Of a stretch of 37,329 nt of DNA, positions 5,764 through 30,349 are shown in pieces (within the stretch, counting starts at the first letter, position 1; each line of letters opens with the position of its first letter). Where the stretch lies: the NCBI GenBank assembly GCA_964010765.1, contig CAXGMD010000028.1, positions 1 to 37,329 of the forward strand. The letters are read 5' to 3'. The notes beneath the pieces were generated by a model. It was not told the DNA's origin. It saw nothing but the letters and a program-made list of their open reading frames with translations, and made no database searches. The stretch comes from an uncultured bacterium. Its GTDB lineage: Bacteria > SAR324 > NAC60-12. The position numbers were made by a program, and so were the translations under genes.

Positions 5764-5850
5764 ATAAATTCTCCTGTTATGAAAAAAACTAACCGTCAGT
5801 AAATAATCGCGCACTCTGTTGTGTTCAATAGGCAGACTCCTTAAATTTGG

Positions 5851-6864: not shown

Positions 6865-6880
6865 TAAATTACCTTTTCTG

Positions 6881-7654: not shown

Positions 7655-8673
7655 GATGCCCTCTCCAGAGGATTTTCATAATTCACTGTAACTACATTTC
7701 CAGTTTCCACGGAGCGGTAAGCTGCATTCGCCAGAATCAACGCACGGCGACCATCCTCAAAAGAAACTTTGGATTCTGAGCCTGCTTCCAGAGTATCCAT
7801 AAAGCTCTCTAGCTGTTTCAGGTAGGCCTGTCGATAACGCTCAATGAAGAAGAATTCGCAAGCGTCTCGCCAATGAGACCCCTTAGCATTGAAACGCTCA
7901 ACGCTTGTAGGTTGCCGGTTTTCAGAGCGTAGCATTCCTTGGCTACCATGTGCTTCCAGGCGTTGGTCATATCCATAGGTTGCATGGCGAGAATTGTTGA
8001 TATGACAGAGCTTTCCGGAGGCAGTTTTCATTAGGATCATCGCGGAATCAATCTCACCAATTTCTTTGGCAACTGTATCGAAGAGATTACTGGTAAATGC
8101 AGTAACCTGCGTGACCTCTTCACCCAAGGCGAAGCGTGCCAGGTCAAAATCATGGATTGTCATGTCTCTCAGCATTCCACCCGCAGCCAGGTAGTAGGCT
8201 TTAGGCGGAGGTTCTGGATCTCGACTGCTAATGATCACTTGCTCTAAGTCTCCAATCTCCCCGTTTCGAACTGCACTGACCAACTGCCCATGTCCGGGGT
8301 CAAATCTGCGATTAAAGCCAATCTGAATCAGACTCTTTGCACTACTGATTTGCTTGCTGCACTCTTCGACCTTGGCAATATCCAAATCGATGGGTTTCTC
8401 GCACAGCACCGCTTTGCCAGACTGAACTGAACGGACGATAAAGTCTGCATGTGTGGGTGTTGATGAGGCCACAAACACGGCGTCCACGTCTGCATCATTA
8501 AAAATTTCATCTAGATCTCGAGCGACCTTGGCACCGGTTTTCGCCCCCACAGCTTCACTGGATGGAGCATGAACATCATAGATCCAATTCAAGCTGCACC
8601 TATCATGAGCTACGATGTTGGCAGCGTGCATTTGGCCAATACGACCAGCGCCAATCAGAGCAAAGCGAATCAT
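7651..8673 (-). CDS. iolG: myo-inositol 2-dehydrogenase
   Basis: Motifs GAGRIG, CEKP, GFNRRFDP, SRDP, DMTIHDFD and YGYDQRLE; lies in the iol cluster; AGGAG RBS. Confidence 0.9.
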   Translation of the reverse strand: MIRFALIGAGRIGQMHAANIVAHDRCSLNWIYDVHAPSSEAVGAKTGAKVARDLDEIFNDADVDAVFVASSTPTHADFIVRSVQSGKAVLCEKPIDLDIAKVEECSKQISSAKSLIQIGFNRRFDPGHGQLVSAVRNGEIGDLEQVIISSRDPEPPPKAYYLAAGGMLRDMTIHDFDLARFALGEEVTQVTAFTSNLFDTVAKEIGEIDSAMILMKTASGKLCHINNSRHATYGYDQRLEAHGSQGMLRSENRQPTSVERFNAKGSHWRDACEFFFIERYRQAYLKQLESFMDTLEAGSESKVSFEDGRRALILANAAYRSVETGNVVTVNYENPLERAS

Positions 8674-8732
8674 TTTTCTCCTACTTCCACGAGTTGATTA
8701 AACCCCCTTTTCAGGGATGAGATAGCAAAGAA

Positions 8733-9839
8733 TTATTGTATTTCTTCAATCAGTACCCGGCGGCCTTCCTGATGACTCAACAATGCTGCATCGAGGATAC
8801 GCTGCACATCGGTCCCCACAGCAAAATCAGGACGGACTGCTTGCCCTGTACGAACTCCCTCGATGAAGTCACCGATCATATGTCCATCCTGCCGAAAAAC
8901 ATCTCGATAGGTATTGTGGACGGTATCCCTGCGGGCCTTGCCCCAAATATCATCCGGAATTGGAAGCTCGTGGGGTAATCCCTCACCAACCTGTGCCCCA
9001 TGAACCCGCTGGATCTTATCCCAATCTGTGACCGAGTAAAGGGTTCCCTCTGAACCATGAAACTCCATGTGGTGGGTTTGACCAAATGGGGAATCTTCAT
9101 AGCAGATCGTCGTCGCATGAATCATCCCTTGAGCGCCATTGGCAAACTCAAGCATGACCATTGCGGTGTCATCGGTATGAGTGAATGGTTTCCCATCTGG
9201 GGTTGTGTCGGGTCGATCAATTGGTGAACCTAGACGACAACTCAATGCACTGACAGAACCCATCATCCATTGAGCTAGGTAGATGAAATGAGAGCCAATG
9301 TCTCCCAAAGCGCCTGATCCCGCCTCTGCAGCGTTTAGACGCCAAGTATACTCTGTTTTTCTGCGGTAGCCTGTGTAGTAGCGAAGATTGCAGTGATAGG
9401 GTTTACCGATATACCCTTGATCAATCAACCGCTTAAGATAGCGAGCCGTCGGCATGAACGAATAAGTGAAAGGTACGAGATTGACTAGCTTGGTTTTCTG
9501 CGCAAGTTTGGTCATCTCAAGCGCTTCCGCATAGTTGAGACCCAGTGGTTTTTCACAAAGAACAGGGATCCCTCTTTCCAATGCAGCTACCGTGAAGGGA
9601 GCATGAGTGTCGTTACCTGTCGAAACGATCAAAGCGTCCAACTCGGCCTGATCCAGCATTTTTTTGAAGTCGACAAAGTGCTGGGAAATTTTCCATTTTT
9701 GCGCAAAAGCCTCAGCCCGCTGAGGATTCCGTCCGCAAGCTGCGACAACTTCTACATGAGGATTTCCCCCCAAAGCAGGCAAGTACATTGCGTCTGCCCA
9801 CCAACTTGTTCCTGCAATTCCGACTCTGATCTTACTCAT
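8733..9839 (-). CDS. Gfo/Idh/MocA family oxidoreductase, substrate unknown
   Basis: Motifs CEKPLG and GSGALGDIGSH (D-x3-H); atypical dinucleotide-binding loop GIAGTSWWA. Confidence 0.82.
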   Translation of the reverse strand: MSKIRVGIAGTSWWADAMYLPALGGNPHVEVVAACGRNPQRAEAFAQKWKISQHFVDFKKMLDQAELDALIVSTGNDTHAPFTVAALERGIPVLCEKPLGLNYAEALEMTKLAQKTKLVNLVPFTYSFMPTARYLKRLIDQGYIGKPYHCNLRYYTGYRRKTEYTWRLNAAEAGSGALGDIGSHFIYLAQWMMGSVSALSCRLGSPIDRPDTTPDGKPFTHTDDTAMVMLEFANGAQGMIHATTICYEDSPFGQTHHMEFHGSEGTLYSVTDWDKIQRVHGAQVGEGLPHELPIPDDIWGKARRDTVHNTYRDVFRQDGHMIGDFIEGVRTGQAVRPDFAVGTDVQRILDAALLSHQEGRRVLIEEIQ

Positions 9840-9900
9840 CTCTCTTAGTCATCAATGTTGTAAATGGATTATTTAAGAGGCCTTACTCCACCGACTAAAT

Positions 9901-11637
9901 TCAAAAAATATCCGGTTCGGCTGTCTCGCCAGGGGCTCCCTGAAGAAATCTGAAATCACAGCCTTCATCTGCCTGAGTAACCTGCTCCACGTACAGCGCT
10001 GCATAACCTCTGCGATGTTTCAAAGCCGGAGCCTGCCATTCCTGTCGACGTCTATCTAGCTCTTCATGTTCCACCAGTAAGTCAAGGCGTCTCTCGAACA
10101 CATCCAGCTCAATTAAATCACCGTCACGCACTAAGCCGAGTGGTCCACCCAGCGCTGCTTCCGGAGCTACATGTAAAACGCAGGCACCATAGCTGGTTCC
10201 ACTCATTCGTGCATCTGAAATTCTCAAAATATCTCTGATTCCTTGTTGCAATAATTTTTTGGGTACTGGGAGCTGCCCCCACTCTGGCATCCCTGGAGCA
10301 CCTACTGGTCCAGCATTTTGAAGAACAAGTACAGAATCAGCAGTCACTGACAAATCATCACGGTCCACCCGAGCCTTCAGATCTCTGATGTCTTTGAAAA
10401 CGATGGCTGGCCCACGATGCTTCAGTAGTCTATCTTCAGCAGCTGAAGGCTTGATGACCGCTCCCTTTGGAGCAAGGGAACCACGCAGAACAGCTGTGCC
10501 GCCAGCAGGCTTTACTGGATTCTCTAGAGGACGAATGACATCATCATGATAAATTTCCGCGCCTTTTAGATTTTCTCCGAGGGTTCGGCCATTGATTGTC
10601 TTCGCGTTCAACTTCAGTCTATCTTTCAATTGCTGCATCAACGCCCGCAGGCCCCCTGCAAAATAGAAATCTTCCATCACGTATTGGCCTGATGGTTTCA
10701 CATTGGCAAGCAACGGAATTCCCTGAGAAATCTTATCAAAACGCTCAAGATCAAGAGTTATTCCGGCTCTGCGAGCCATTGCCAAAAGATGGATGATTCC
10801 ATTAGTGGAGCCTCCGATTGCCATCTGAACCATTATCGCATTGGCAAAGGAATCATCACTTATGATATCTGTTGGTTTGAGATCCTCCCAAACCATGTCT
10901 ACCGCACGACGCCCACTCCAAGAGGCCATGCGATTGTGATTCGAATCAACCGCAGGAATTGAAGACGCTCCTGGCATACTCAATCCGAGCGCTTCTGCCA
11001 ATGACATCATCGTGGCAGCTGTCCCCATGGTCATGCAGGTTCCTGGTGAGCGGGCTATACCATCTTCAATTTCTTCCCAACTCTCAGAATCTAATTCCCC
11101 TGCGCGACGCTGATCCCAATACTTCCAAACATCAGTCCCGCTACCTAGTGTCTCTCCTCGCCAATTTCCACGAAGCATGGCCCCTCCAGGGACATACACA
11201 AATGGCAAATTCATACTGAGAGCACCCATCAGCACACCAGGAGTGGTTTTGTCACACCCACCCAACAACACGGCTCCATCGACTGGATAGCCTCGTAAAA
11301 CTTCTTCCACTTCCATCGCAAGCAGATTTCGATACATCATCGCAGTTGGTTTGAGCAATTGCTCACCCAATGAGAGCACTGGCAGTTCAACTGCAAAGCC
11401 GCCTGCCTGGTAAATTCCTCTTTTGATGTCTTGAACCCGCTGCGGGAAGTGAGTGTGGCAGGTGTTCATCTCATTCCAGGGATTGATGATCGCAATCACT
11501 GGTTTGCCAAGAAACTCGTCTCGGTGGAATCCCATCTGCTTTGTACGTGAACGATGTCCGAAGCTTCGGAGATCATCGGGTGCATACCAACGTGCACTTC
11601 TCAATTCATCTGGGTTTCGTCGAGAGGAAGTTGTCAT
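9901..11637 (-). CDS. IlvD/Edd-family [2Fe-2S] sugar-acid dehydratase (L-arabinonate dehydratase-like)
   Basis: Cys ligands in NTCH, GGCDKT and GTCMTMGT; motifs GGSTN, PGMPE and SDARMSGT; N-terminal LRSARWY typical of sugar-acid members. Confidence 0.9.
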   Translation of the reverse strand: MTTSSRRNPDELRSARWYAPDDLRSFGHRSRTKQMGFHRDEFLGKPVIAIINPWNEMNTCHTHFPQRVQDIKRGIYQAGGFAVELPVLSLGEQLLKPTAMMYRNLLAMEVEEVLRGYPVDGAVLLGGCDKTTPGVLMGALSMNLPFVYVPGGAMLRGNWRGETLGSGTDVWKYWDQRRAGELDSESWEEIEDGIARSPGTCMTMGTAATMMSLAEALGLSMPGASSIPAVDSNHNRMASWSGRRAVDMVWEDLKPTDIISDDSFANAIMVQMAIGGSTNGIIHLLAMARRAGITLDLERFDKISQGIPLLANVKPSGQYVMEDFYFAGGLRALMQQLKDRLKLNAKTINGRTLGENLKGAEIYHDDVIRPLENPVKPAGGTAVLRGSLAPKGAVIKPSAAEDRLLKHRGPAIVFKDIRDLKARVDRDDLSVTADSVLVLQNAGPVGAPGMPEWGQLPVPKKLLQQGIRDILRISDARMSGTSYGACVLHVAPEAALGGPLGLVRDGDLIELDVFERRLDLLVEHEELDRRRQEWQAPALKHRRGYAALYVEQVTQADEGCDFRFLQGAPGETAEPDIF

Positions 11638-11705
11638 CAAAAAAAACCAATTAGGGGGTTTTGCAAAAATATTTGATTTGAATCTTATGTGAATTTAGTT
11701 CGCCA

Positions 11706-11734
11706 AATATATTTGACTTGTTCTCCAATGGCAA
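11706..11734 (-). promoter_or_regulatory. putative sigma70 promoter of the leftward dehydratase-iolG-ABC operon
   Basis: Minus strand reads TTGCCA (11734-11729), 17-nt spacer, TATATT (11711-11706). Confidence 0.5.
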
Positions 11735-11751: not shown

Positions 11752-11776
11752 ATTTTGAGAAAAAATTTTCCAAAAT
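11752..11776. promoter_or_regulatory. putative IolR (RpiR-family) operator
   Basis: Near-palindrome ATTTTGAGAAAAAATTTTCCAAAAT. Core AGAA-N6-TTCC (11758-11771) is one mismatch from the alphaproteobacterial IolR box GGAA-N6-TTCC. Confidence 0.6.
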
Positions 11777-11889
11777 GTTATCCTCAATGGGTTCAAGGTA
11801 GCTAGTCACACGCTTTCTTTTCCTCCCGGAAAGTTGCGTTGCTGGTCTACCTTGAGCTCCGCTCTTCCTCCGAAAAGAACCTCGAGAAG

Positions 11890-13818
11890 ATGTCCAATTT
11901 GAATCGACCAATGGATGCCAATCGTCCCTTTGATCTTGTTTGCATGGGGCGTGTGGCCGTTGACCTCTATGCTGAACAAATTCATAGCCCTCTCGAAAAT
12001 GCGCAGAGCTTCCGTAAGTACCTAGGTGGTTGTGCGGGCAACATTGCTGTGGGCACCTCGCGTCTGGGATTAAAATCCGCGATGTTTTCCTGTACTGGCA
12101 CGGACGCGATGGGGGAATTTCTGCGCCAGCAACTTCACCACGAAGGCGTAGACACTACCCTATTGCGTGACACATCTCAGCATCTGACAGCTCTCGTTCT
12201 GTTGGGAGTCAGCCCACCAGATCGCTTCCCGCTCATCTTCTACAGAGAAAACTGCGCAGACATGCAGATCCGACCTGAAGATGCTGATCCTGCCTTCCTG
12301 AAAAAATGCAAGGCACTACTATTCACAGGCACTGGGCTTTCCAGTCCGTCCATGAAAGAAGCAACTCTAGCTGCCATCAAGACTGCTAAGGAGCAAGGCT
12401 GTGCTGTTGTTCTCGACATCGACTATCGACCTGTTCTATGGGGATTGACAGCAGCTGGTGACGGCGAATCACGTTTTGTTGCATCAGAAGCTGTCACGAG
12501 AGAATTGCAGCCGTTGATTAAGGACTTAGATCTGATCATCGGGACTGAAGAAGAAGTAATGATCGCTGGCGGCTCTGAGACCCTGGAAGAAGCCCTTCAA
12601 GTAATCCGTGAATCTTCACGGGCTACCGTAGTGCTGAAGCGAGGAGAAAAGGGCTGTGAAGTCTTTGAACCTGGTAGTCAGCAAAGTCGAACAGCCAGAC
12701 CATTTCCCATCAAGGTGCTGAATGTTCTGGGAGCAGGAGATGCCTTTGCCTCTGGATTTTTACGCGGATGGTTACGAGGAGAATCCTTGGAAACCTGCGC
12801 ACTTTGGGGCAACGCCAACGGGGCACTGACTGTCACCCGCCATGGTTGTGCTCCTTCGATGGCTTCTTTTGAAGAACTACAGTACTTGATAGAAAATTTT
12901 GATGCAGATCCAAATATTCTAACCAACCCACACCTGTTACGTCTTCATCAGCGAACAATCCTCGGAAAACCGAGAAATTTTCCATTACAAGTGCTGGCTT
13001 TTGATCATCGCACCCAATTTGAAGAATCCTGTAAACAGCACAATCAGCCAATCAGCAAAATTGCTGAATTCAAAAGATTGGTGTTCGAGGGATTCAAAAA
13101 AGTGGCTGCGGAGAAAACATCACTACCTCTCGCGCTGCTGGTTGATCCACAATATGGAGCAGATATTTTACAGGATTCAGCCTACGCGTCGTATGCAGTC
13201 GGAGCTCCAATTGAGCAAGCAGGCTCTTTTCCCGTAGAGTGGCTATGTGGGGAAGAACTGCACGAGCACCTGCTTGGGCGCCCATCTGAATGGTTCGTCA
13301 AGGTCCTTTGGCACTTCCATCCTGCTCTTGATGCCAATGAAAAACAGCGACAACTCATCCAATTGAAAAGACTGGAAACGATCTGTCAATTGCTGGATCG
13401 ACGCCTGATGCTAGAGCTGATACTTCCTACAAATCTCTCCCAGGATGGAGCAGCGCTCGCAGCCGCGGTTGAAGAGGTTTATGAAGCTCAGATCACACCT
13501 TTTTGGTGGAAGGTGATGGCCCTTGATGATGAATCAGAGTGGCAGAAAGTCACGAATGCCCTTGATCGGCATGACACCGAGGCTGGCGTGATTGTTCTTG
13601 GGAAAAACGCTCCGCTGGAAACTTTCCCAAGCTGGTTCAAGACCTTGCGATCCACTCCCCACACCTGTGGATTTGCCATAGGGCGTTCCATCTTCTGGGG
13701 ACCTTGGGAAAGCTACATCAATGGCTCCTTGACCTCTGAGGAGATCCCTTCCATTATCGAAAAGAATTACAAAACTGTTCTCAGGATGTGGGAAGAAGCT
13801 GCGCCTGCGTCATTATGA
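11890..13818 (+). CDS. iolC: 5-dehydro-2-deoxygluconokinase fused to C-terminal DUF2090 (aldolase-like) domain
   Basis: PfkB domain motifs GRVAVDLY, FYRENCAD, LDIDYRP and VLNVLGAGDAF; DUF2090 motifs LAFDHR, WWKV and GFAIGRSIF. Start set at ATG 11890. Confidence 0.92.
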   Translation: MSNLNRPMDANRPFDLVCMGRVAVDLYAEQIHSPLENAQSFRKYLGGCAGNIAVGTSRLGLKSAMFSCTGTDAMGEFLRQQLHHEGVDTTLLRDTSQHLTALVLLGVSPPDRFPLIFYRENCADMQIRPEDADPAFLKKCKALLFTGTGLSSPSMKEATLAAIKTAKEQGCAVVLDIDYRPVLWGLTAAGDGESRFVASEAVTRELQPLIKDLDLIIGTEEEVMIAGGSETLEEALQVIRESSRATVVLKRGEKGCEVFEPGSQQSRTARPFPIKVLNVLGAGDAFASGFLRGWLRGESLETCALWGNANGALTVTRHGCAPSMASFEELQYLIENFDADPNILTNPHLLRLHQRTILGKPRNFPLQVLAFDHRTQFEESCKQHNQPISKIAEFKRLVFEGFKKVAAEKTSLPLALLVDPQYGADILQDSAYASYAVGAPIEQAGSFPVEWLCGEELHEHLLGRPSEWFVKVLWHFHPALDANEKQRQLIQLKRLETICQLLDRRLMLELILPTNLSQDGAALAAAVEEVYEAQITPFWWKVMALDDESEWQKVTNALDRHDTEAGVIVLGKNAPLETFPSWFKTLRSTPHTCGFAIGRSIFWGPWESYINGSLTSEEIPSIIEKNYKTVLRMWEEAAPASL

Positions 13819-13872
13819 GAATTTAAGTAAATGAATTGGTACACCCAAACCACCGCAATGCATTAGAGGAAT

Positions 13873-14676
13873 ATGTCAACTCTACTCAGTCGCCATCAGG
13901 AACCTGATAACACCGGACTAGTTCAAAGCATCACGCCAGAACGTGCCCAATGGAAACACGTTGGCTTTGATGTCTATCATCTGCAAACCGGCCAATCATT
14001 AAAGCAAGACACAGGAAACCAGGAGGTCTGCTTGGTACTTGTTACAGGACGGGCTGATATCAAAACTAAACAGGAAGCTTGGAAAGACCTAGGAGACAGG
14101 ATGAGTGTTTTTGAGGACAAGGCCCCTCACGCTGTCTATGTACCTCACTCCGATACTTTCAAAGTAAAGGCAACCACAAATCTAGAACTCGCAGTGTGTC
14201 GTGCTCCAGGATTTGGTGACCATGCAGCACGCTTGATTCCCCCAGAATCCATGGGCCGTGAGACACGTGGACAAGGCACTAACACAAGGCACGTCTGCAA
14301 CATCCTACCTCAGACGGAACCTGCGGATAGCCTCTTGGTTGTTGAAGTGATAACCCCCAACGGCTCCTGGTCAAGCTACCCGCCACACAAACATGACACT
14401 GATAACATGCCCAGTGAATCTCAACTGGAAGAAATCTACTACCATCGACTACAACCATCTCAGGGCTTCGCCTTCCAGAGAGTCTACACAGATGATCGAT
14501 CATTGGATGAAACAATGGTCGTTCATGATGGAGATGTCGTGATGGTGCCTCGTGGCTATCACCCAGCCGGAGCACCACACGGTTACGACCTTTATTACCT
14601 GAACGTGATGGCTGGCCCAAGCCGTGTCTGGAAATTTAAAAATGATCCTGCTCACGAATGGATTGTTCAACAATGA
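13873..14676 (+). CDS. iolB: 5-deoxy-glucuronate isomerase
   Basis: Motifs WSSYPPHKHD, LEEIYYHR, VPRGYHP and YYLNVMAGP; GAGGA RBS. Confidence 0.95.
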   Translation: MSTLLSRHQEPDNTGLVQSITPERAQWKHVGFDVYHLQTGQSLKQDTGNQEVCLVLVTGRADIKTKQEAWKDLGDRMSVFEDKAPHAVYVPHSDTFKVKATTNLELAVCRAPGFGDHAARLIPPESMGRETRGQGTNTRHVCNILPQTEPADSLLVVEVITPNGSWSSYPPHKHDTDNMPSESQLEEIYYHRLQPSQGFAFQRVYTDDRSLDETMVVHDGDVVMVPRGYHPAGAPHGYDLYYLNVMAGPSRVWKFKNDPAHEWIVQQ

Positions 14677-14712
14677 GTATCCTTCGCCAATTGAATTGAG
14701 AGAAGAAAGAAA

Positions 14713-16212
14713 ATGTCTGCAACACTGATCCAAAACTTCATCGCTGGAAAACTTAGTCATCCAGCAAACGCTGCCAGACTTTCTGTGACCAATCCTGCTA
14801 CGGGAGAAGTTACAGGAGAAGTTGCACTCTCCAGTGCTGCTGAAGTTGACCAGGCCGTCCAAGCTGCGAAAACAGCTGCGGTTAAATGGGGGACGACTCC
14901 TCCTCTGAGACGCGCCCGATTGATGTTCCGCTTTTTGGAACTGCTCCAGCAAAATCATGACAAGCTGGCTGAAGCGATCACGAAAGAACATGGGAAAACC
15001 TTCGAAGATGCAAAAGGGGAAGTTCAGAGGGGAATTGAGGTAGTTGAATTCGCCTGTGGTATTCCACATCTACTGAAGGGCTCATTCAGTGAACAGGTCG
15101 CCAATGCGGTCGATGCATACTCTTTTCGACAACCACTTGGAGTTGTTGCCGGTATTACCCCCTTCAACTTTCCGGTCATGGTGCCGATGTGGATGTATCC
15201 GATGGCAATTGCCTGCGGGAATTCCTTCGTTTTGAAACCATCGGAGAAAGATCCAAGTGCTTCCTTGTTGATGGCCGAATTACTTCAGCAAGCAGGCTTG
15301 CCTGATGGTGTCTTCAATGTAGTGCAGGGTAGCCGTGAAGCAGTAGAAGCCTTGTTGGATCATCCAGATATCGCTGCGATCAGCTTTGTCGGTTCAACCC
15401 CAATTGCTCGGGCAATTTATCAGCGCGGAACAGCTCACGACAAAAGAGTCCAGGCTCTTGGGGGTGCCAAGAATCATATGATCATCATGCCGGATGCAGA
15501 TCTGGATCAGGCGGCCAGTGCTCTAATGGGAGCCGGTTATGGAAGTGCGGGTGAGCGCTGCATGGCGATCTCTGTTGCCGTACCCGTTGGGGAAGAAACA
15601 GCGAACGCTTTGATGGAGCGATTGATTCCCCAAGTCAAGGCTCTCAAAATTGGCAACGGCATGGAACCAGGCCAGGATATGGGCCCTCTGGTTACCCGTG
15701 AGCATCGTGATAAGGTTTCAGCCTACGTGGATAGTGGTGTGGAGCAGGGAGCAAAACTGCTAGTGGACGGTCGCGGCTACAAGGTGGCAGGCCATGAAAA
15801 TGGATTTTTCATCGGAGGTTGCCTGTTTGATCAAGTCACCCCCGAGATGGAGATTTACAAGAACGAGATCTTCGGTCCTGTTCTCTCAACGGTACGTGTC
15901 CCAACTTACGAAGCTGCAGTAAAGTTGGTTCACAACAATCCCTATGGAAATGGAATCGCAATCTTCACACGCGATGGTGATACAGCACGCGATTTTGTCA
16001 GCAAGATCGAGGTCGGTATGGTGGGTGTGAACGTCCCAATTCCGGTACCAGTTGCATTCCACAGCTTCGGTGGATGGAAACAATCCTTGTTCGGTGATCA
16101 CGATATTTATGGACCAGAATCGATCAATTTCTACACCCGCCTCAAAGCTGTCACTTCTCGATGGCCAACAGGAATCAAGGAAGGTGCGAAATTCAACTTT
16201 CCTACGCTCTGA
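14713..16212 (+). CDS. iolA: CoA-acylating (methyl)malonate-semialdehyde dehydrogenase
   Basis: Motifs ITPFNFP, LKPSEKDP, LGGAKNH, GSAGERCMA and VGVNVPIPVP (MmsA/IolA signature). Confidence 0.93.
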   Translation: MSATLIQNFIAGKLSHPANAARLSVTNPATGEVTGEVALSSAAEVDQAVQAAKTAAVKWGTTPPLRRARLMFRFLELLQQNHDKLAEAITKEHGKTFEDAKGEVQRGIEVVEFACGIPHLLKGSFSEQVANAVDAYSFRQPLGVVAGITPFNFPVMVPMWMYPMAIACGNSFVLKPSEKDPSASLLMAELLQQAGLPDGVFNVVQGSREAVEALLDHPDIAAISFVGSTPIARAIYQRGTAHDKRVQALGGAKNHMIIMPDADLDQAASALMGAGYGSAGERCMAISVAVPVGEETANALMERLIPQVKALKIGNGMEPGQDMGPLVTREHRDKVSAYVDSGVEQGAKLLVDGRGYKVAGHENGFFIGGCLFDQVTPEMEIYKNEIFGPVLSTVRVPTYEAAVKLVHNNPYGNGIAIFTRDGDTARDFVSKIEVGMVGVNVPIPVPVAFHSFGGWKQSLFGDHDIYGPESINFYTRLKAVTSRWPTGIKEGAKFNFPTL

Positions 16213-16296
16213 ATTGAAAACTGGTTGAGTCAAGAAGTTTCCTAGAAAAGAATCTTGGCTCAGAGAAACTAAAAATTAATTCTCTAATTTGAAAAA

Positions 16297-16312
16297 TAGA
16301 AATTAATTTCTA
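16297..16312. promoter_or_regulatory. putative IolR operator upstream of the aldolase/2-hydroxyacid dehydrogenase pair
   Basis: Perfect 16-bp palindrome TAGAAATTAATTTCTA (core AGAA-N6-TTCT), next to a candidate TTGCTC-N17-TATTTT promoter (16319-16347). Confidence 0.55.
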
Positions 16313-16413
16313 AAAATCTTGCTCTCTATCAATTCAGATAATATTTTAGTGTCGAACATGCTTCATTTATGTTCGGCCCAGTCTAACTTTCATCAACTAA
16401 ACATTGAGGCCCA

Positions 16414-17205
16414 ATGCGTCCAAATCCACTAATGAAAATGCTCAAGGAAGACCGAGCTATCGTGAATGGGTGGCTAGCGATTCCAAATTCTTTCTCTACA
16501 GAGGTGATGGCGCACCAAGGATGGGATTCACTGACAGTCGATATGCAACATGGTGTCTCCGACTATCAGAATGCAGTAACGATGTTCCAGGCGATCTGCA
16601 CGACGAGCACAGCGCCATTGACCAGGGTCCCTTGGTTGGAAGAGGGGATCATCATGCGCATGTTAGATGCGGGAGCCTACGGAGTGATTTGTCCAATGAT
16701 CAACAAGGCGTCTGATGCAGAACGCTTTGCGCAGGCCTGTTACTATCCACCCCTTGGACAACGCAGCTTTGGGCCCATCAGGGCTCTCTTCAGTTTGGGA
16801 GCAGACTACCCGTCTCACGCCAATGATGAGATTCTTCCGATCGCTATGATTGAAACCAAGGAAGCACTGGATAACCTTGATGATATCCTCAAGGTAGAAG
16901 GGATTCGCATGGTCTACATTGGTCCCTCAGATCTTGGAAACTCCCTTGGAAGAGTCCCAACTTTTGACCAGGAAGATCCGGTCGTTGTAGAAGCGATTGA
17001 TATGATTCTTCGAAAAGCCACCGAGCATGGCGTAGCAGCCGGTATTCACAACGGAACACCGGAGTATGCTCTACGAATGATTGAAAAGGGGTTCCGCTTC
17101 GTGACGATTGGTTCTGATTCAAGGCTCATGGCTCTAGCTGCTAAGGGGGTTCTCACAAAGATGCGAGAGGATATGCCAAAAGCTCCTAGCTCTAGTTCTT
17201 ACTGA
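16414..17205 (+). CDS. HpcH/HpaI-family metal-dependent (class II) pyruvate aldolase
   Basis: Motifs DMQHG, TRVP (Arg), LDAGAYGVICPM, YPPLGQRS, MIET (Glu) and GPSDL (Asp). Confidence 0.88.
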   Translation: MRPNPLMKMLKEDRAIVNGWLAIPNSFSTEVMAHQGWDSLTVDMQHGVSDYQNAVTMFQAICTTSTAPLTRVPWLEEGIIMRMLDAGAYGVICPMINKASDAERFAQACYYPPLGQRSFGPIRALFSLGADYPSHANDEILPIAMIETKEALDNLDDILKVEGIRMVYIGPSDLGNSLGRVPTFDQEDPVVVEAIDMILRKATEHGVAAGIHNGTPEYALRMIEKGFRFVTIGSDSRLMALAAKGVLTKMREDMPKAPSSSSY

Positions 17206-17207
17206 TT

Positions 17208-18188
17208 ATGACGACCCCCCGTGGACACGTACTGCTGCTTGGTAAAATTCATGAAGACGCAATGCAGTTACTGCGATCCCATCACGAGTTAACCCACGAG
17301 GTCTTGGAGAAACCTGCTGAGGATGAAATCTTCAGCAGGTTAGCACAAGCGGATGCCTTGATCGTACGGACCGCTCAGTTGTCTGCAGAATTAATGGATA
17401 ACGCGCATCAACTGAAAATTGTGGCCCGTCATGGAGTGGGATATGACAATGTGCCTGTTGAGGTGCTTTCCAGAAAGAAAATCCCATTGGCAACCACTGG
17501 AAATGCAAATGCCATTACGGTTGCCGAACATGCGCTGTACTTGATACTCACTCTGGCAAAACGTGGGAGTGCCTTCGATCGGGCAATGAGAGAAGGTGAT
17601 TGGGAATCGCGTAATCGCCTTCAGGGCTCAGAGATATCTGGAAAGAATCTCTTGCTTGTGGGCTTTGGTCGGATCGGCAGAGAAGTGGCCAAACGTGCCT
17701 TAGCATTCGGAATGCGAGTTCACGTTTTTGATCCGTATGTGAATTCAGAGCAAGTTAGCGAGTCAGGAGCAACCCCGATCAGCAATCTTGAGGATTTTCT
17801 ACCTGATACAGATTTCCTAAGCCTTCATCTCCCATTCACTGCCCAAAATCGACATATTATCGGAGCGGCTGAGATCAAGGCTCTTCCAACTACAGCTTAC
17901 GTTATCAATACTGCACGTGGTGGGTTAATTGATGAAGAAGAACTTCTCAAAGCTCTCGACGCTGGAGAATTAGCTGGGGCAGGATTAGATTGCTTTGAGC
18001 AAGAACCTCCCCCACGTAACATGGAGTTATTTAGTTCTGACAAGGTCGTATTTAGTCCCCACAACGCCAGCTTAACAGCAGAATGTACCCGTCGGCTTGG
18101 ATTGGTCTGTGTTGAAAATGTGGTAGATGGCCTGACAGGGCGATTGCAGAGGGATCGTGTGGTTAATTGGGAGGCAGTTTACTCTTGA
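17208..18188 (+). CDS. D-isomer-specific 2-hydroxyacid dehydrogenase (SerA-like, no ACT domain)
   Basis: Motifs RHGVGYDNV, VAEHA, GFGRIG...VFDP (NAD-type), NTARG, FEQEP and SPHNA (Arg/Glu/His triad). Starts 2 nt after the aldolase stop. Confidence 0.88.
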   Translation: MTTPRGHVLLLGKIHEDAMQLLRSHHELTHEVLEKPAEDEIFSRLAQADALIVRTAQLSAELMDNAHQLKIVARHGVGYDNVPVEVLSRKKIPLATTGNANAITVAEHALYLILTLAKRGSAFDRAMREGDWESRNRLQGSEISGKNLLLVGFGRIGREVAKRALAFGMRVHVFDPYVNSEQVSESGATPISNLEDFLPDTDFLSLHLPFTAQNRHIIGAAEIKALPTTAYVINTARGGLIDEEELLKALDAGELAGAGLDCFEQEPPPRNMELFSSDKVVFSPHNASLTAECTRRLGLVCVENVVDGLTGRLQRDRVVNWEAVYS

Positions 18189-18203
18189 GATACCTGAAGG
18201 GGC

Positions 18204-19139
18204 TCAATTCTGCTCAAAATGATATGGCTTCGAGGGGGAGATTCTTTGCAAAACCTTGGGATCATTTGATCCCAGAAGGTCCTGTGGATTGAGTTCCTCC
18301 TGCGAACCTTCAATCTGGAATCGGCTGGCCATGCTGATAATGAGGCTTTGTGCGAGGCACATCGTAGCAGCTAATGAGTAACTGAATTTGTGGCCTGCAC
18401 CCGGTACGACAAGCGAGCAAGTAGCGTGTTTATGCAGCGGGCTCAGTTGACTATCCGTAAAAGCTAGAATGGGGATTTTCTTGCGGGCTGTTCCTTCCAC
18501 GATGTCTACAACTTCCCGCGCGTAGTAGCGGAAGGAAACTGCAACTAGCAGGGATTTCTCATTCATCAACTCTGCTTCCTCTGTGGCTAGTCCGCCAGAA
18601 CTATCGAGGAGCCGAACATTTTGTCGGAGATACAGTAACAAGTAACGAATGTAGTAGGCTACGGAGAGCGAACGCAATTGCCCCAAAACATAGATTGTGT
18701 CTGCTTCCTCTAATAACGAAACAGCCTTTTCCAGTACTTCAGGAGATATACTGTGCTTGAGGTCATTCAGAGCTGCAATGTCATTACTTACTAAGGATTG
18801 CAAGAATGAGGCGGTCGAATTGCTCGACTCCGCTGAGACCTCGTTACTGAATGATTCCAGGCGTTCTTTTGAACTGGCTGTGGAAATCAGGTGAGATTGA
18901 AAAACACGCTTCATTTCGCTGAAGCCATTGTAGCCCATGTGCTTTGCGAAACGTACCAAGGAGGAAGGTTGAACCCCAGCCTGGTCTGCAATCACTTTGA
19001 CGGATTCAACAGCCATCGCATTTGGGTTCTGAACCATAAAACGTGTAATACGCTGAAAACTTTTCTTCATCTTCGGAAACTGCTCGGTCACCTGCGTGAT
19101 CAACCGTTCATAGGTATCAGGTAGCGGGAGGTTCGTCAT
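18204..19139 (-). CDS. iolR: MurR/RpiR-family transcriptional regulator, probable inositol repressor
   Basis: N-terminal HTH (GVQPSSLVRFAKHMGYNGFSEM) and SIS domain (SFRYYARE, TDSQLSPL); divergent from iolD; AAGGA before ATG 19139. Confidence 0.82.
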   Translation of the reverse strand: MTNLPLPDTYERLITQVTEQFPKMKKSFQRITRFMVQNPNAMAVESVKVIADQAGVQPSSLVRFAKHMGYNGFSEMKRVFQSHLISTASSKERLESFSNEVSAESSNSTASFLQSLVSNDIAALNDLKHSISPEVLEKAVSLLEEADTIYVLGQLRSLSVAYYIRYLLLYLRQNVRLLDSSGGLATEEAELMNEKSLLVAVSFRYYAREVVDIVEGTARKKIPILAFTDSQLSPLHKHATCSLVVPGAGHKFSYSLAATMCLAQSLIISMASRFQIEGSQEELNPQDLLGSNDPKVLQRISPSKPYHFEQN

Positions 19140-19209
19140 CAGCATCCTTTGAAGATTGTTTTCATGTTGCTTTCAAATTTCTAAGCGAAGCAAATGAAAT
19201 TGAAGAAAA

Positions 19210-19225
19210 TTGAATTTTTGTTCAA
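19210..19225. promoter_or_regulatory. putative IolR operator between iolR and iolD
   Basis: TTGAATTTTTGTTCAA (core TGAA-N6-TTCA) overlaps the -35 of a candidate TTGAAT-N18-TAAAAT promoter (19210-19239). Confidence 0.5.
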
Positions 19226-19273
19226 CAATTTATTAAAATAGACTTTTTGAGTCAATTAGCAAGAGGAGTCCTA

Positions 19274-21118
19274 ATGAAAACGATTCGACTAACGATGGCC
19301 CAAGCACTGGTCCGCTATCTTGTCAACCAGCACACCATGATTGATGGCAAGAAGGAGCCCTTGTTTCCAGGGGTTTTTGCAATTTTTGGCCATGGCAATG
19401 TTACCTGTCTGGGTGAGGCTCTGGAATCAGTTCGTGATGTCATGCCCACGTGGCGGGGTCAGAATGAACAATCAATGGGTTTGGCTGCGGTTGCGTTTGC
19501 CAAGGCAAGCCGCCGACGTCAGATCATGGTTGCAACCTCATCAATTGGCCCTGGCTGTACAAATTTTCTGACAGCTGCCGGTACGGCCCACTCGAATCGG
19601 TTACCTGTTCTGTTCCTCTCCGGAGATACCTTCTCTAATCGGCTACCTGATCCAGTCTTGCAGCAAGTTGAACATTTCCAAGATCCAACATTGACTGTCG
19701 CGGATGCCTTCAAGTCTTGTACAAGATTCTGGGATCGAATTACTCATCCAGCACAGTTGATGGTCTCCCTCCCACAAGCAGTGGCGACAATGATGGATCC
19801 GGCTACTTCTGGCCCAGCCTTCATTGCCCTACCCCAGGATATCCAAGCAGTTGCTTACGATTATCCCGAGGTGTTCTTTGAGGAGAAGATTCACCGAAGC
19901 CCACGACCTCGGCCCGATCAGGATAGCATTGCGGAGGCAGCAGCAATTTTGAAGTCAGCCCAAAAACCGATGATTGTTGCTGGCGGAGGGGTATTTTACT
20001 CAGGTGCAGTCGCTACTCTGACCAGTTTTGCAGAAAAACACGGTATCCCAGTGACAGAGACAATCGCTGGTCGATCACAGATGCTGCATGACCATAAACT
20101 GAATGCTGGACCACTCGGTGTGATCGGTTCAAGCTCTGCAAATGCACTTGCTGCAGAGGCCGATGTCGTTCTTGCTGTGGGAACCCGTCTGCAAGATTTC
20201 ACAACGGGTTCCTGGTCTGTCTTTGGTAATGAGTCAATGCAGTTGATTGCGATCAACGCAGCCAGCTTCGACGCTCACAAGCACCGGGCGCTCTCCGTAG
20301 TTGGCGATGCCAAGGTTGGCTTGGAAGATCTAAGCAGTGCGCTGGGTAATTGGGCAGGCAGTCCAGCTTGGATCGAAACGGCACAGGGGCATTATGCAGA
20401 GTGGAACCGGACAGTAGATCAGCATTCTGGACCATCAGATGCTGTTCCTCCAAGCTACGGGCAAGTCGTTGGTGCCATCAACAGAAGCTGTGATAGCACT
20501 GACTTGGCACTGACTGCTGCAGGTGGATTACCAGGCGAGCTTTGCAAAAACTGGAAGACACGCTCAATTGGTACTTTTGACTGTGAGTTTGGCTTTTCTT
20601 GTATGGGATATGAAATCGCAGGTGGTTGGGGGGCCAAAATGGCAGACCCATCCCGAGACGTCATCGTCTTCGTTGGCGATGGATCTTACTTGATGTTGAA
20701 CAGTGACATTTACAGCACTGTGCTGACAGGACACAAGATGATCGTCATCGTCTGTGACAACGGGGGCTTCTCTGTGATCAATCGCTTACAAAATTTCAAG
20801 GGAAGCGCTTCTTTCAACAATCTCTTAAAGGACTGTAAAGTAGAGAACCTTCAAGGGGTTGATTTCGTACAGCACGCCACCAGCATGGGAGCCCTTGGTG
20901 AGCAAGTGGAAAGCATTGCAGAGCTAGAGGCTGCATTTAAACGTGCGAAAGCAGCGGATCGCACTTATGTCATCTGCATCAAAACCCAGCCATCACAATG
21001 GACGCCAGGAGATGCTTGGTGGGATGTCGGAGTCCCAGAAGTGAGTGATCGTGAAGAGGTTCGTCAAGCAAGGTCAGACCATTCCGAGGGCCAGAAACGT
21101 CAACGCTTGGGCGTGTAA
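19274..21118 (+). CDS. iolD: 3D-(3,5/4)-trihydroxycyclohexane-1,2-dione acylhydrolase (ThDP-dependent)
   Basis: Motifs MKTIRLTMAQALV, IFGHGNV, NEQSM, PDPVLQQ, EFGFSCMGYE, GDGSYLM and WWDVGVPEVS; GAGGAG RBS. Confidence 0.95.
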   Translation: MKTIRLTMAQALVRYLVNQHTMIDGKKEPLFPGVFAIFGHGNVTCLGEALESVRDVMPTWRGQNEQSMGLAAVAFAKASRRRQIMVATSSIGPGCTNFLTAAGTAHSNRLPVLFLSGDTFSNRLPDPVLQQVEHFQDPTLTVADAFKSCTRFWDRITHPAQLMVSLPQAVATMMDPATSGPAFIALPQDIQAVAYDYPEVFFEEKIHRSPRPRPDQDSIAEAAAILKSAQKPMIVAGGGVFYSGAVATLTSFAEKHGIPVTETIAGRSQMLHDHKLNAGPLGVIGSSSANALAAEADVVLAVGTRLQDFTTGSWSVFGNESMQLIAINAASFDAHKHRALSVVGDAKVGLEDLSSALGNWAGSPAWIETAQGHYAEWNRTVDQHSGPSDAVPPSYGQVVGAINRSCDSTDLALTAAGGLPGELCKNWKTRSIGTFDCEFGFSCMGYEIAGGWGAKMADPSRDVIVFVGDGSYLMLNSDIYSTVLTGHKMIVIVCDNGGFSVINRLQNFKGSASFNNLLKDCKVENLQGVDFVQHATSMGALGEQVESIAELEAAFKRAKAADRTYVICIKTQPSQWTPGDAWWDVGVPEVSDREEVRQARSDHSEGQKRQRLGV

Positions 21119-21138
21119 AATAGAAAGGAAGAATTTTA

Positions 21139-22266
21139 ATGAAGACACTAGGAATCGGACTGATCGGTTCCGGATTTATGGGGCGTTGCCATGTCAACGC
21201 CTACAATTCGATAGCCAGCATCTTTAAAGTCTCTCAAAAACCAGTCCTGAAGATGCTCGCTGATGCGTCCCCTGAACTAGCCAGTCAACAAGCAAAGGCT
21301 CTACAATTTGAACAGAGCACTGCCGATTGGCAGGAGTTGGTGCAACATCCTGAAGTTGATGTCGTTGATATCACGGCTCCAAACCATTTGCACCATCCAA
21401 TTGCAATCGCTGCGATGAACTTGGGTAAGTCCGTTTACTGTGAGAAGCCACTGGCTTGCACACTTGCTGAAGCCCAAGAGATGGCTAATTTGGCCAGGTC
21501 AAAGCAGATCCCGACACTTGTCGGGTATAACTATCTGCAGAACCCTCTCATGAGAACCGCCCGAGAGATTGTTCAGAGTGGCGAAATCGGGGAACCGATT
21601 GCTTTCAGAGGTGTACATGCAGAAGACTACATGGCTAATCCCCTATCACCATACACCACTCGACTGGATGCTTCTCAGGGAGGAGGGGTACTGTATGACT
21701 TGGGAAGTCATATCATCTCCCTAGCTCGCTACGTTGCAGGACCAATTCAAGAAGTTTTGGGGAATCTGACGACTGTCGTTCCCGAAAGACCTAGTGGAGA
21801 TACGACCCGCCTGGTTCATGTTGATGACCAAACCCACTGCCTGGTGAGATTTGAGAACGGCTGTGTTGGTACACTAGAGGCTAGTTGGATGGCCTGGGGG
21901 CGGAAGATGCACCTTGCTTTTGAGCTGACTTGTACGAAAGGGACGCTTGTCTTCAATCAGGAACAGTTCAATGAGTTGAGACTGTATGATGCCAACCAGA
22001 AAGCGGGTCGGGATGGTTTTAAAACATTACTTTCCGGACCAGACCACCCTCACTATAGTGCTTTCTGCCCTGCACCTGGGCATCAACTTGGCTTCAATGA
22101 ACTCAAGGTGATTGAGCTGCTACAACTGCTACGAGCACTGGAAGGTGGGGATGCCTGCTGGCCTGATTTCACCGAAGCTTTTGAAATTCAAAAAGTGTTG
22201 GAAGCGGTCAAGCTTTCATCAGAAGAGGCAAGGTGGTGTTCCCCACAGTCAATGATTACAAATTGA
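21139..22266 (+). CDS. Gfo/Idh/MocA dehydrogenase resembling scyllo-inositol 2-dehydrogenase / L-glucose dehydrogenase (LgdA type)
   Basis: Motifs GSGFMGRCH, CEKP, GYNY, EDYMA, DLGSH, AFCPAPGHQLGFNELK and WPDF; lies between iolD and iolE. Confidence 0.78.
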   Translation: MKTLGIGLIGSGFMGRCHVNAYNSIASIFKVSQKPVLKMLADASPELASQQAKALQFEQSTADWQELVQHPEVDVVDITAPNHLHHPIAIAAMNLGKSVYCEKPLACTLAEAQEMANLARSKQIPTLVGYNYLQNPLMRTAREIVQSGEIGEPIAFRGVHAEDYMANPLSPYTTRLDASQGGGVLYDLGSHIISLARYVAGPIQEVLGNLTTVVPERPSGDTTRLVHVDDQTHCLVRFENGCVGTLEASWMAWGRKMHLAFELTCTKGTLVFNQEQFNELRLYDANQKAGRDGFKTLLSGPDHPHYSAFCPAPGHQLGFNELKVIELLQLLRALEGGDACWPDFTEAFEIQKVLEAVKLSSEEARWCSPQSMITN

Positions 22267-22305
22267 TTGTCTGATTTCAGAAAACATTCAACTTCAGGAA
22301 AACAT

Positions 22306-23205
22306 ATGAGCGTTCAACTGGCTGTCGCCCCAATTGCTTGGTCCAACAGTGATCTGCCCCAATTAGGGGGAGACACTCCATTGGAAACATGTTTGCGGGA
22401 GAGTCGTGAGGCAGGGTTTACCGGAACAGAAAGTGGCGCTAAGTATCCGATGGATCCTGAAAAACTTGGACCACTGCTCAAACAATTCGATCTCAAGCTT
22501 GCGTCGGGTTGGTTCTCTGGAACCCTACGCGAGTGCAGTGTGGATGAAGAATGGGAAAATCTTCAGGAAATGCTCTACACCTTCAAATCCTTGCAAGCTC
22601 CTGTTTTGGTTTATGCAGAAACCAGTGGCAGTGTTCAAACAAAGCAGCAAATTCCAGTCTCCCAACGTCCTGTCATGCCTGACGAAGAATACCCAGAATA
22701 TGGGCGAAAATTGACAGAAATCGCCGATCGTATGGCAGCGTATGGAGTGCCAATGGTCTATCACCATCACATGGGGACAGTTATTGAGACAGAGCGAGAA
22801 GTCGACCTTTTGATGGCCAACACGGGGCCCAATGTGAATTTATTGATAGACACAGGACACCTTACTTTCGCAGGTGGCAATGTGGAGGCAACCACTCGTC
22901 GTCATGGACATCGGGTGAAACATGTGCACTGCAAAGACATCCGGGCAGATGTCTACAAAAGAGTTCAGGCCGAGGACATGAGCTTCCTAGACGCCGTGCT
23001 GGAGGGAGTCTTCACCGTCCCAGGAGATGGCTCGATAGACTTTCACAACTTTGCGAAGGTACTTTCCGACATCAACTACAGTGGTTGGATCGTAGTCGAA
23101 GCAGAGCAAGATCCAGAAAAAGCCAATCCCCTGATTTACTCAAGGATGGGTCATCAGCACTTGACCGATGCACTTCAAAAAGCAGCCATCGAAATTCAGG
23201 CCTGA
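22306..23205 (+). CDS. iolE: myo-inosose-2 (2-keto-myo-inositol) dehydratase
   Basis: Motifs APIAWSNSDLPQLGG, SGWFSG, YHHHMGT, DTGH, HVHCKD, FTVPGDG and VEAEQDP; AGGA before ATG 22306. Confidence 0.93.
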   Translation: MSVQLAVAPIAWSNSDLPQLGGDTPLETCLRESREAGFTGTESGAKYPMDPEKLGPLLKQFDLKLASGWFSGTLRECSVDEEWENLQEMLYTFKSLQAPVLVYAETSGSVQTKQQIPVSQRPVMPDEEYPEYGRKLTEIADRMAAYGVPMVYHHHMGTVIETEREVDLLMANTGPNVNLLIDTGHLTFAGGNVEATTRRHGHRVKHVHCKDIRADVYKRVQAEDMSFLDAVLEGVFTVPGDGSIDFHNFAKVLSDINYSGWIVVEAEQDPEKANPLIYSRMGHQHLTDALQKAAIEIQA

Positions 23206-30347: not shown

Positions 30348-30349
30348 AA

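Follow-up and report, generated by a model that had tools for sequence, protein, structure and literature searches.

The DNA analysed here, called the window throughout, is a 37,329-nucleotide stretch from an uncultured bacterium of the SAR324 lineage, an organism represented by metagenome assemblies only (contig CAXGMD010000028.1, our C28, one of the 266 contigs of the 3.86-Mb host assembly GCA_964010765.1, our G000). It holds a complete myo-inositol catabolic cluster with an aldolase/dehydrogenase gene pair and a gene for an RpiR-family regulator, IolR, and three gaps between its transcription units each contain a dyad with the core GAA-N6-TTC. We judge it likely that these three dyads are IolR operators and that the aldolase/dehydrogenase pair is an IolR target. 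From left to right, the genes and sites are:

3866 to 11640, minus strand: IlvD/Edd-type dehydratase, Gfo/Idh/MocA oxidoreductase, iolG, sugar ABC transporter (ATPase, permease and binding protein) and short-chain dehydrogenase/reductase (SDR), transcribed away from gap 1; models NF009559, TIGR04380 (iolG, 396 bits), ABC and SDR models
9901 to 11640, minus strand: the dehydratase of this operon; best model 'L-arabinonate dehydratase'
11757 to 11772: site 1, GAGAAAAAATTTTCCA, in gap 1, the divergent gap between the dehydratase-Gfo-iolG-ABC-SDR operon (minus) and iolC-iolB-iolA (plus)
11891 to 16212, plus strand: iolC-DUF2090 (a kinase/aldolase fusion), iolB and iolA; NF047869 (569.8 bits), TIGR04382, TIGR04378, TIGR01722
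16297 to 16312: site 2, the perfect 16-bp palindrome TAGAAATTAATTTCTA, in gap 2, between iolA and the aldolase gene
16414 to 17205, plus strand: HpcH/HpaI class II aldolase (the 'non-canonical aldolase'); PF03328 at 2.4e-30
17208 to 18188, plus strand: D-isomer-specific 2-hydroxyacid dehydrogenase; PF02826, PF00389
18204 to 19139 (longest open reading frame (ORF) to 19145), minus strand: IolR, RpiR-family regulator; PF01418 HTH_6, PF01380 SIS
19210 to 19225: site 3, TTGAATTTTTGTTCAA, in gap 3, the divergent iolR-iolD gap
19275 to 23205, plus strand: iolD, Gfo/Idh/MocA oxidoreductase and iolE; TIGR04377 (iolD, 851.6 bits), TIGR04379 (iolE, 390 bits)
23368 to 24789: aldehyde dehydrogenase, after a 162-bp gap 3' of iolE

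An earlier note on this DNA had called the regulator (18204-19139) and the aldolase/dehydrogenase unit from the sequence alone, and both calls hold by Pfam and NCBIfam profile matches; iolC-iolB-iolA and iolG, at most 8 kb from the regulator gene, all score over the NCBIfam cut-offs. The aldolase gene follows iolA after the 201-bp gap 2, the dehydrogenase starts 2 bp past the aldolase stop, and the regulator gene is convergent with this pair and divergent from iolD-Gfo-iolE. Six genomes of the genus share this gene order. Conserved ATG codons with ribosome-binding sites place the probable true starts at 11891 (iolC fusion), 19139 (iolR) and 19275 (iolD), and the longest-ORF starts at 11839, 19145 and 19247 are probably wrong: ATG 11891 is kept in the genus, as is ATG 19275 with its upstream GAGGAG, and ATG 19139, conserved in the genus locus L032, yields a protein of 311 amino acids, the length of the nearest database proteins.

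IolR combines a helix-turn-helix domain (PF01418 HTH_6, 4.8e-12, residues 16-81) with a SIS domain (PF01380, 4e-14, residues 145-270), and the solved chains nearest to it, 3sho and 4ivn, are of the RpiR family; its NCBIfam matches are confined to RpiR, MurR and HexR models, every one of them under the cut-off. It is encoded by the sole transcription-factor gene of the window, no regulator family being recognised among the other 28 ORFs scanned, and it has a single match in the host genome. In the host's own family, high-identity copies are confined to the genus and the remaining matches are 33-38% identical. Outside the genus, identity to the nearest proteins is 45-57%, the named ones among them being mostly alphaproteobacterial, and the homologues retrieved overall are 34-57% identical; the Caulobacter and Sinorhizobium IolR proteins are not among the best 80 loci of 561 relatives. 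One 264-residue database protein (P0005) matches IolR at 92% identity over the N-terminal two thirds of the latter; it carries PF01418 and PF07230, its source calls it 'portal protein, partial', and the record has the appearance of a chimera or a mis-assembly.

The earlier note had placed the dyads at 11758-11771 (AGAAAAAATTTTCC), at 16298-16311 (AGAAATTAATTTCT, within the perfect palindrome 16297-16312) and at 19211-19224 (TGAATTTTTGTTCA), and all three positions were confirmed. Its description of them as intergenic elements at or beside candidate -35 hexamers also stands: each gap separates iol transcription units, and sigma-70-like pairs abut or overlap the sites. The aldolase unit does have the most symmetric site, site 2 being a perfect 16-bp palindrome. 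The outer bases are A or T (AGAA..TTCC in site 1, AGAA..TTCT in site 2, TGAA..TTCA in site 3), and the spacers are almost pure A/T.

A consensus scan called the pairs TTGAGA-18-TATCCT from 11755, TTGAAA-17-AAAAAT from 16289, and TTGAAT-18-TAAAAT from 19210. Site 1 overlaps the first of these -35-like hexamers and lies ~10-24 bp 3' of the start implied by TTGACT at 11713 and TAAATT at 11741; site 3 overlaps the plus-strand -35 TTGAAT and also the start region implied by a minus-strand pair (19255..19227), the iolR promoter. Downstream of site 2, gap 2 has a conserved CTTG...TAATAT/TATTTT -10-like pair, with a perfect TATAAT in three genus variants. These promoter assignments are tentative because the scan finds no excess over shuffles (10 promoter-like sites versus 8.5, not above chance).

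The dyad pattern is convincing only with what is found in relatives and in the genus, and not on the host genome alone. Outside the genus, 147 loci with IolR homologues (76 from genomes and 71 from metagenomes) were annotated with the window proteins, their ORFs were masked, and every perfect 4-N6-4 palindrome was counted, split by regulator identity class. The class nearest to IolR (49-57% identity, 14 loci) has AGAA-N6-TTCT five times in non-coding DNA and never in coding DNA; in the 44-48% class (65 loci), the non-coding DNA contains 74 GCAA-N6-TTGC (1.34 per kb) and the coding DNA 27 (0.06 per kb). Base composition cannot explain the dyads of the relatives because the closest-class loci have 56-71% G+C. 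In that class the arms are TAGAA/TTCTA, as in window site 2, and the gaps upstream of the regulator gene contain TAGAATGGTTGTTCTG (L059), TAGAACGCATATTCTG (L062), TAGAATGAACATTCTA (L061), TAGAACGTATATTCCG (L147), TAGAACGCGTGTTCTC (L146), TAGAACGGATGTTCTG (L145), TAGAACAAACGTTCGT (L148) and TAGAATGCCTATTCCG (L064). The iolG-iolD gaps of relatives carry xGAAC/T-N4-GTTGC (CGGAACATTTGTTGCA, for instance, in L060 and in L063), a sequence similar to that of site 3 in front of iolD. More distant homologues, in GC-rich loci, have A/T-spacer sites by iolC, iolB or iolG that are near-identical to sites 1 and 3 (ATGAATTTTTGTTCCA and TTGAAAAATTTTTCAA in L184, TAGAAAATTTGTTCTA in L190), and ATGAATTTTTGTTCCA, the near-identical counterpart of site 3, is upstream of the L184 regulator gene.

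A second grouping used the residue aligned to Gln59 of IolR, with 200 shuffles for comparison. Beside Gln59 regulators (30 loci, segment VQPSSLVRF), the 15.8 kb of non-coding DNA contain 39 GAA-N6-TTC, spread over 21 of the 30 loci, against 4.5 +/- 2.2 in shuffles (maximum 13), and CAA-N6-TTG is at background (4 versus 2.6). For His59 regulators (116 loci) the counts are 161 CAA-N6-TTG versus 30 +/- 5.6 in shuffles and 50 GAA-N6-TTC versus 26.6 +/- 5.8. By palindrome type, 15 Gln59 loci are xGAA-only and one is GCAA-only, the corresponding His59 numbers being 11 and 60 (Fisher P 4e-9); the loci are phylogenetically related, so that such P values overstate the case. The IolR segment around Gln59, GVQPSSLVRFA, is identical in L059, L061, L062, L146 and L147, and the His59 branch (42-48% identical) carries GVHPSSLVRF or GIHASSFVRF in place of GVQPSSLVRF. 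GCAA-N6-TTGC was seen beside His59 regulators in L065, L068, L080, L114, L116, L120, L128, L131 and others. Residue 59 alone does not set specificity because a His59 subgroup with VHPSTLVRFAN (L186, L190, L194, L197) has TGGAA..TTCCA sites.

This covariation bears on the alternative that the dyads are bound by some other regulator encoded elsewhere, such as a global catabolite regulator. The host genome would offer such a factor ~237 intergenic GAA-N6-TTC, and several better matches to the consensus of the relatives lie on other contigs, e.g., GAGAACATGTGTTCCA at C49:11405. However, the type of dyad changes with the neighbouring regulator, Gln59 or His59, and the host genome has its one IolR match in a window that encodes no other regulator; we give a different regulator hardly any credence.

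Within the genus, we compared the six genomes of shared gene order and further variants from metagenome contigs. Columns are invariant in 41 of 48 cases within the sites versus 261 of 438 elsewhere in the gaps (one-sided Fisher P 2e-4, columns and strains not being independent). Site 1 has 14 of its 16 columns invariant, with the core GAAAAAATTTTC the same in six of six distinct genus sequences, and site 3 has 15 of 16 invariant in 11 distinct sequences, L032 included, in which the sequence upstream of site 3 is unalignable and the site itself intact. Site 2 is less uniform, with 12 of 16 columns invariant across nine distinct sequences. Conservation in the genus is thus supportive of operators but not decisive, because the strains are closely related and promoters overlap the sites.

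Two further dyads, each with a spacer of 5, are auxiliary candidates of low confidence:

11691 to 11701: GAATTTAGTTC, at the start implied by a minus-strand pair, 11734..11706
16354 to 16364: GAACATGCTTC, following a conserved GTCGAACA block just past the -10-like TAATAT/TATTTT

The first is invariant in the genus at 11 of 11 columns, within a long invariant promoter block; the second is invariant at 7 of 11 columns and has a spacer of 6 (GAA-N6-TTC) in three genus variants. Both lie at implied transcription starts, the first at that of the minus-strand promoter of gap 1 and the second at that of the aldolase promoter, and both share with site 3 the pattern GAA-N5/6-GTTC(G/A)(C/A)CA. One further GAA-N6-TTC, GAATCATTTTTC at 8667-8678, was rejected as coincidental; it extends over the start codon and ribosome-binding site of iolG, and it is variable in two of five genus sequences. 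Farther to the right and unrelated to the operators, 27028-34937 has two consecutive gene pairs, each for a long membrane protein of the DctM type (735 and 724 amino acids) with an NMT1_3 binding protein, and then a gene for a CsiD-like dioxygenase.

A number of results weigh against taking the three dyads as IolR operators. Literal GGAA...TTCC occurs in none of the three sites, the core GAA-N6-TTC being what is found in all three main gaps, and the 162-bp gap before the aldehyde dehydrogenase gene at 23368 is without a dyad. The bare core is not enriched in the window (14 versus 16.9 +/- 4.3 expected, with 78 of 100 shuffles reaching 14). An open search of all 3- and 4-base arms with spacers of 0-12 (4160 types) ranked GAA-N6-TTC second (6e-4) among dyads that occur in all three gaps, after ATTT-N4-AAAT (3.7e-5), and neither passes Bonferroni correction. 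A weight matrix made from 9 or 14 sites of the closest relatives ranked the window sites 280, 639 and 2026 or 272, 322 and 7455 of 430,611 intergenic positions; GC-rich spacers dominate this matrix, and it was put aside as not useful. With a flank-and-spacer matrix from 78 distinct non-genus sites, the window sites came 37th, 46th and 87th of 237 GAA-N6-TTC sites (Mann-Whitney P 0.057); beyond the GAA/TTC core nothing distinguishes the three sites, and the flanks and spacers carry little information. Next to GAA, sites 1 and 2 have A, whereas the closest relatives have C or T. In site 2 the centre GAAATTAATTT is retained in the genus while the outer bases drift (TAGAAATTAATTTCTA, TGGAAATTAATTTCTA, TGGAAATTAATTTTCA and, in L032, GAGAATTAATTTTCCA), and three of the nine sequences have TGGAAATTAATTTTCA, which is either GAA-N7-TTC or GGAA-N6-TTTC with one mismatch. 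Finally, genus conservation is inseparable from constraint on a promoter or UP element.

Other figures from the host genome are less adverse. A crude ORF mask leaves 430 kb of intergenic DNA (41% G+C) with 224 GAA-N6-TTC, or 0.52 per kb (~237 in the matrix ranking), and from a rate of 221 in 429 kb the joint P for a dyad in all three gaps is 6e-4; dinucleotide shuffles of the gaps themselves (25-36% G+C, 5000 each) gave at least one dyad in 0.21, 0.18 and 0.10 of cases for gaps 1, 2 and 3, a joint chance of ~0.004. In the host genome alone the dyads are therefore only marginally above chance, and the caution in the earlier note that AT-rich spacers allow chance matches was, by the shuffles and the open search, justified at that level. 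The in-genome result is suggestive, and meaningful only because the literature had fixed the GGAA-N6-TTCC pattern in advance. What matches ATTT-N4-AAAT in gaps 1 and 2 is the right flank of the respective site (ATTTTCCAAAAT and ATTTCTAAAAAT), which means that sites 1 and 2 share more than the core, and the genus variants TGGAAATTAATTTTCA and GAGAATTAATTTTCCA approach GGAA...TTCC. TAGAA-N6-TTCTA occurs four times in the 3.86-Mb genome, two of them intergenic and one of these being site 2. Elsewhere in the genome, CAGAACAAAGGTTCGA at 2598-2613 of the 2.8-kb contig C213 lies 29 bp upstream of a Gfo/Idh/MocA ORF (1418-2569, minus strand) and is a possible additional IolR target outside the window.

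These numbers can also be read as chance matches in AT-rich promoter DNA, in which case what is conserved would be the promoters (TTGAAT, TTGAGA and an A/T-rich UP-like element 5' of the aldolase -35) and IolR would bind elsewhere or only at site 3. The low G+C of the gaps, the 10-21% of single-gap shuffles that yield a dyad, the non-significant open search and the low ranks given by the relatives' matrices all fit such a reading. So do the invariant block of ~70 bp in gap 1, which takes in promoter-like pairs that diverge and overlap, and the place of site 2, ~40-57 bp upstream of the start implied by CTTG...TATTTT, the position of an UP element. Chance is nevertheless rather unlikely in our estimate: in GC-rich genomes the core recurs beside homologous regulators at almost nine times the shuffled count (39 versus 4.5), the TAGAA/TTCTA arms of site 2, found only twice in 430 kb of intergenic DNA, match the aldolase gaps of the closest relatives, and in gap 3 the -35/-10 spacer is variable but the dyad arm inside it is constant. 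The earlier note had named a lack of enrichment or of conservation as grounds for abandoning the operator; enrichment is indeed lacking in the window, whereas conservation in the genus and enrichment beside homologous regulators were both found.

The aldolase matches PF03328 over the whole barrel (residues 20-239 against model positions 5-218 of 221), and its closest solved chains are 7o5i and 6r62, described as HpcH/HpaI aldolase and hydroxyketoacid aldolase (E 7e-51, residues 10-250); the 6r62 enzyme presumably uses hydroxypyruvate as nucleophile. The fold family PF03328 is common to the window aldolase, HpaI, GarL and the 6r62/7o5i aldolase, but the window protein is under every NCBIfam equivalog cut-off tried (HpaI, GarL and rhamnonate) and falls in no named specificity group: it scores 168.8 bits against 368.8 for HpaI, 138.5 against 406.75 for GarL, and 145.1 against 393 and 128.7 against 441 for further models of the HpaI/GarL/rhamnonate set. 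PGDH and glyoxylate-reductase models were likewise below cut-off on the dehydrogenase.

The aldolase and dehydrogenase genes are adjacent and on the same strand in 31 of the 147 non-genus loci, and 23 loci contain the aldolase together with iolD or iolE. An operon with the aldolase diverges from the regulator gene in 22 loci, and in all 22 a [G/C]AA-N6-TT[G/C] dyad is present in the gap between them; the six closest are of the TAGAA type, TAGAA(C/T)....(A/G)TTCxx, and the other sixteen of the GCAA type. In the host genus the pair has shifted to a place convergent with the regulator gene, with site 2 in its own gap. The adjacency and the operator-bearing gaps in relatives are window-independent support for the inference of the earlier note that the aldolase unit belongs to the IolR regulon and to cyclitol metabolism. 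Another count, of dyads in the gap directly upstream of every aldolase gene (18 of 34 loci), was dropped because many of these 'gaps' are unaligned 3' ends of a preceding aldehyde dehydrogenase gene, the recurrent CCGAAGGGxGCTTCGG being coding.

Some individual loci show the aldolase in other company. In L146 (52% regulator identity), a dehydratase<-dehydrogenase<-aldolase operon is divergent from the regulator gene, and its dehydratase is homologous to that at 9901-11640 of the window, which hints that the window dehydratase may work with the aldolase. In L009 (genome G021, another genus of the host's family; positions 55, 224 and 1361), an aldolase 73% identical follows directly after iolG (60%); a CTGAAA-N5/6-TTTCAG palindrome precedes both genes, with AAGAATACCATTTCTT ~60 bp before iolG, and the aldolase would be co-regulated with iolG there too, possibly by a different factor. 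In L012 and L014 (genus g11 of the same family), the aldolase, 54-55% identical, is in an operon with a different RpiR gene; in L015, also of g11, it is divergent from a sugar-binding-protein gene, and the gap has TGGAAAATTAATTTTCAT, which is near the L032 form of site 2.

Transcription of the pair bears on whether site 2 serves a promoter of its own. The dyads could be real IolR operators while the pair has no promoter, being read through from iolA, with site 2 in an auxiliary role (looping or roadblock). No terminator was called after iolA, where the fold of 16200-16300 (z = -1.09) is no better than shuffles. Seventeen salt-marsh metatranscriptome runs contained about half of the sampled words, and contigs compared from four of these runs cover 30 of 30 bins at 95-99% identity; in two of the four, contigs bridge gap 2 (X1, 15208-17699; X4, 15232-17236). 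Such contigs carry no information on starts, strand, level or a single transcript, and DNA carry-over is possible. The hexamers of gap 2 are also weak (the called pair matches at 9 of 12 positions, the conserved TTGCTC at 3 of 6), and RpiR regulators are tetrameric (PMC11014249). Against this, the 201-bp gap keeps the CTTG...-10-like pair, with its perfect TATAAT in three genus variants, and the aldolase operons of relatives are preceded by an operator-bearing gap of their own. We consider read-through as the sole source of expression improbable, and regulon membership of the pair would hold under it as well. In run X3, a contig matches from 16342 on and is preceded by 175 unrelated letters; this suggests a strain in which the upstream region of the aldolase was replaced right at the -10-like element.

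With the pair taken as an IolR target, a role for it can be proposed. In most relatives the pair accompanies an aldehyde dehydrogenase, and in the window and L146 an IlvD-type dehydratase. Two genomes have iolD, with or without iolE, and the aldolase beside the regulator (G061, locus L079; G064, locus L112), the dehydrogenase too in L112; in these two of five pair-bearing genomes, of unknown completeness, iolB had no match and the best iolC scores were 128 and 164 bits against a cut-off of 300. It is possible, if doubtful, that the pair, with an aldehyde dehydrogenase or dehydratase, constitutes a hitherto undescribed lower branch for inositol breakdown, of a non-phosphorylative kind. In this scheme the IolD product 5-deoxy-glucuronate would be oxidised to 5-deoxy-glucarate, which the dehydrogenase or dehydratase would convert to a 2-keto acid, and the aldolase would cleave the latter to malonate semialdehyde and hydroxypyruvate or pyruvate, bypassing IolB, IolC and IolJ. 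The adjacency of the pair, the operators in its divergent gaps and the iolB and iolC results in G061 and G064 point in this direction. No paper that connects HpcH aldolases with iol genes was among the matches listed by a literature search.

The regulation we propose follows from the positions of the sites. An IolR dimer or tetramer would place one helix-turn-helix on each half-site and, without an inositol-derived effector, would block four or five promoters, by analogy with Caulobacter. Site 3, on the -35 of iolD-Gfo-iolE and in the start region of iolR, would give autoregulation plus control of iolD-iolE. Site 1, at or just 3' of the iolC-iolB-iolA promoter, would control that operon and perhaps the divergent dehydratase-iolG-transporter operon too. 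Site 2, in the promoter of the pair or immediately 5' of it, would cause the pair to be induced together with the canonical iol genes. More speculatively, the N5 dyads would allow for paired operators and for DNA looping by a tetramer. The effector might be 2-deoxy-5-keto-gluconate-6-phosphate, only by analogy with S. meliloti, whose autoregulated IolR is released by that compound in the account quoted in PMC8877191; the kinase needed to make it is encoded in the window (iolC fusion).

If these assignments are true, IolR control of inositol catabolism is not confined to the Alphaproteobacteria but reaches an uncultured lineage catalogued as Deltaproteobacteria, where the operator has drifted to nearly pure A/T and kept its GAA/TTC core. 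There would then be regulatory evidence, independent of gene order, that the aldolase/dehydrogenase pair belongs to cyclitol metabolism, and because the pair recurs by iolD, iolE and the regulator in many Proteobacteria, some seemingly without iolB and iolC, it would be a candidate for an alternative end to the pathway. The switch from GAA to CAA half-sites that tracks the helix-turn-helix sequence would be a small natural case of co-evolution between regulator and operator.

Operators of this kind have precedents. The IolR motif of S. meliloti is reportedly GGAA-N6-TTCC. Among the relatives analysed here, the GCAA-N6-TTGC sites of the His59 branch resemble those of the window in their 4-N6-4 architecture, their iolD/iolE/SDR/aldolase/dehydrogenase neighbourhood and their position in divergent gaps, but differ in the second base of the half-site, which is C and not G. 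The premise of the earlier note, that RpiR-type IolR of alphaproteobacteria uses GGAA-N6-TTCC-like sites, is in print: Boutte et al. (2008, PMC2597717) report GGAA-N6-TTCC in front of the iol genes of Caulobacter and of four further alphaproteobacteria, deletion of the RpiR-type IolR derepresses idhA, iolC and the transporter, and mutation of the palindrome (motif 1) derepresses iolC. As in the window, the Caulobacter crescentus IolR (CC1297) is an RpiR regulator encoded by iol genes, and a 4-N6-4 palindrome with a GAA/TTC core is found at iolC, dehydrogenase and transporter promoters; unlike the window, with A or T and near-pure A/T spacers, the outer bases there are G. The likeness of the window regulator to a characterised IolR is one of domains and gene context. 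RccR and HexR of Pseudomonas, also of the RpiR family, share with the window regulator a helix-turn-helix DNA-binding domain and a SIS effector domain, and according to PMC11014249 they form tetramers, bind pseudo-palindromes and respond to phospho-sugar acids; their half-sites (TGTAGT/ACTACA) and spacers are different. Because RccR accepts two spacer lengths (PMC11014249), a feature reported for RccR, the N5 and N7 variants seen here are less damning than they would otherwise be. Overall, the window system is probably of the known RpiR-IolR/GGAA-N6-TTCC type, an AT-rich variant in a new lineage with an enlarged regulon, to which it would add the HpcH aldolase/2-hydroxyacid dehydrogenase pair, which goes without mention in the passages of PMC2597717 consulted.

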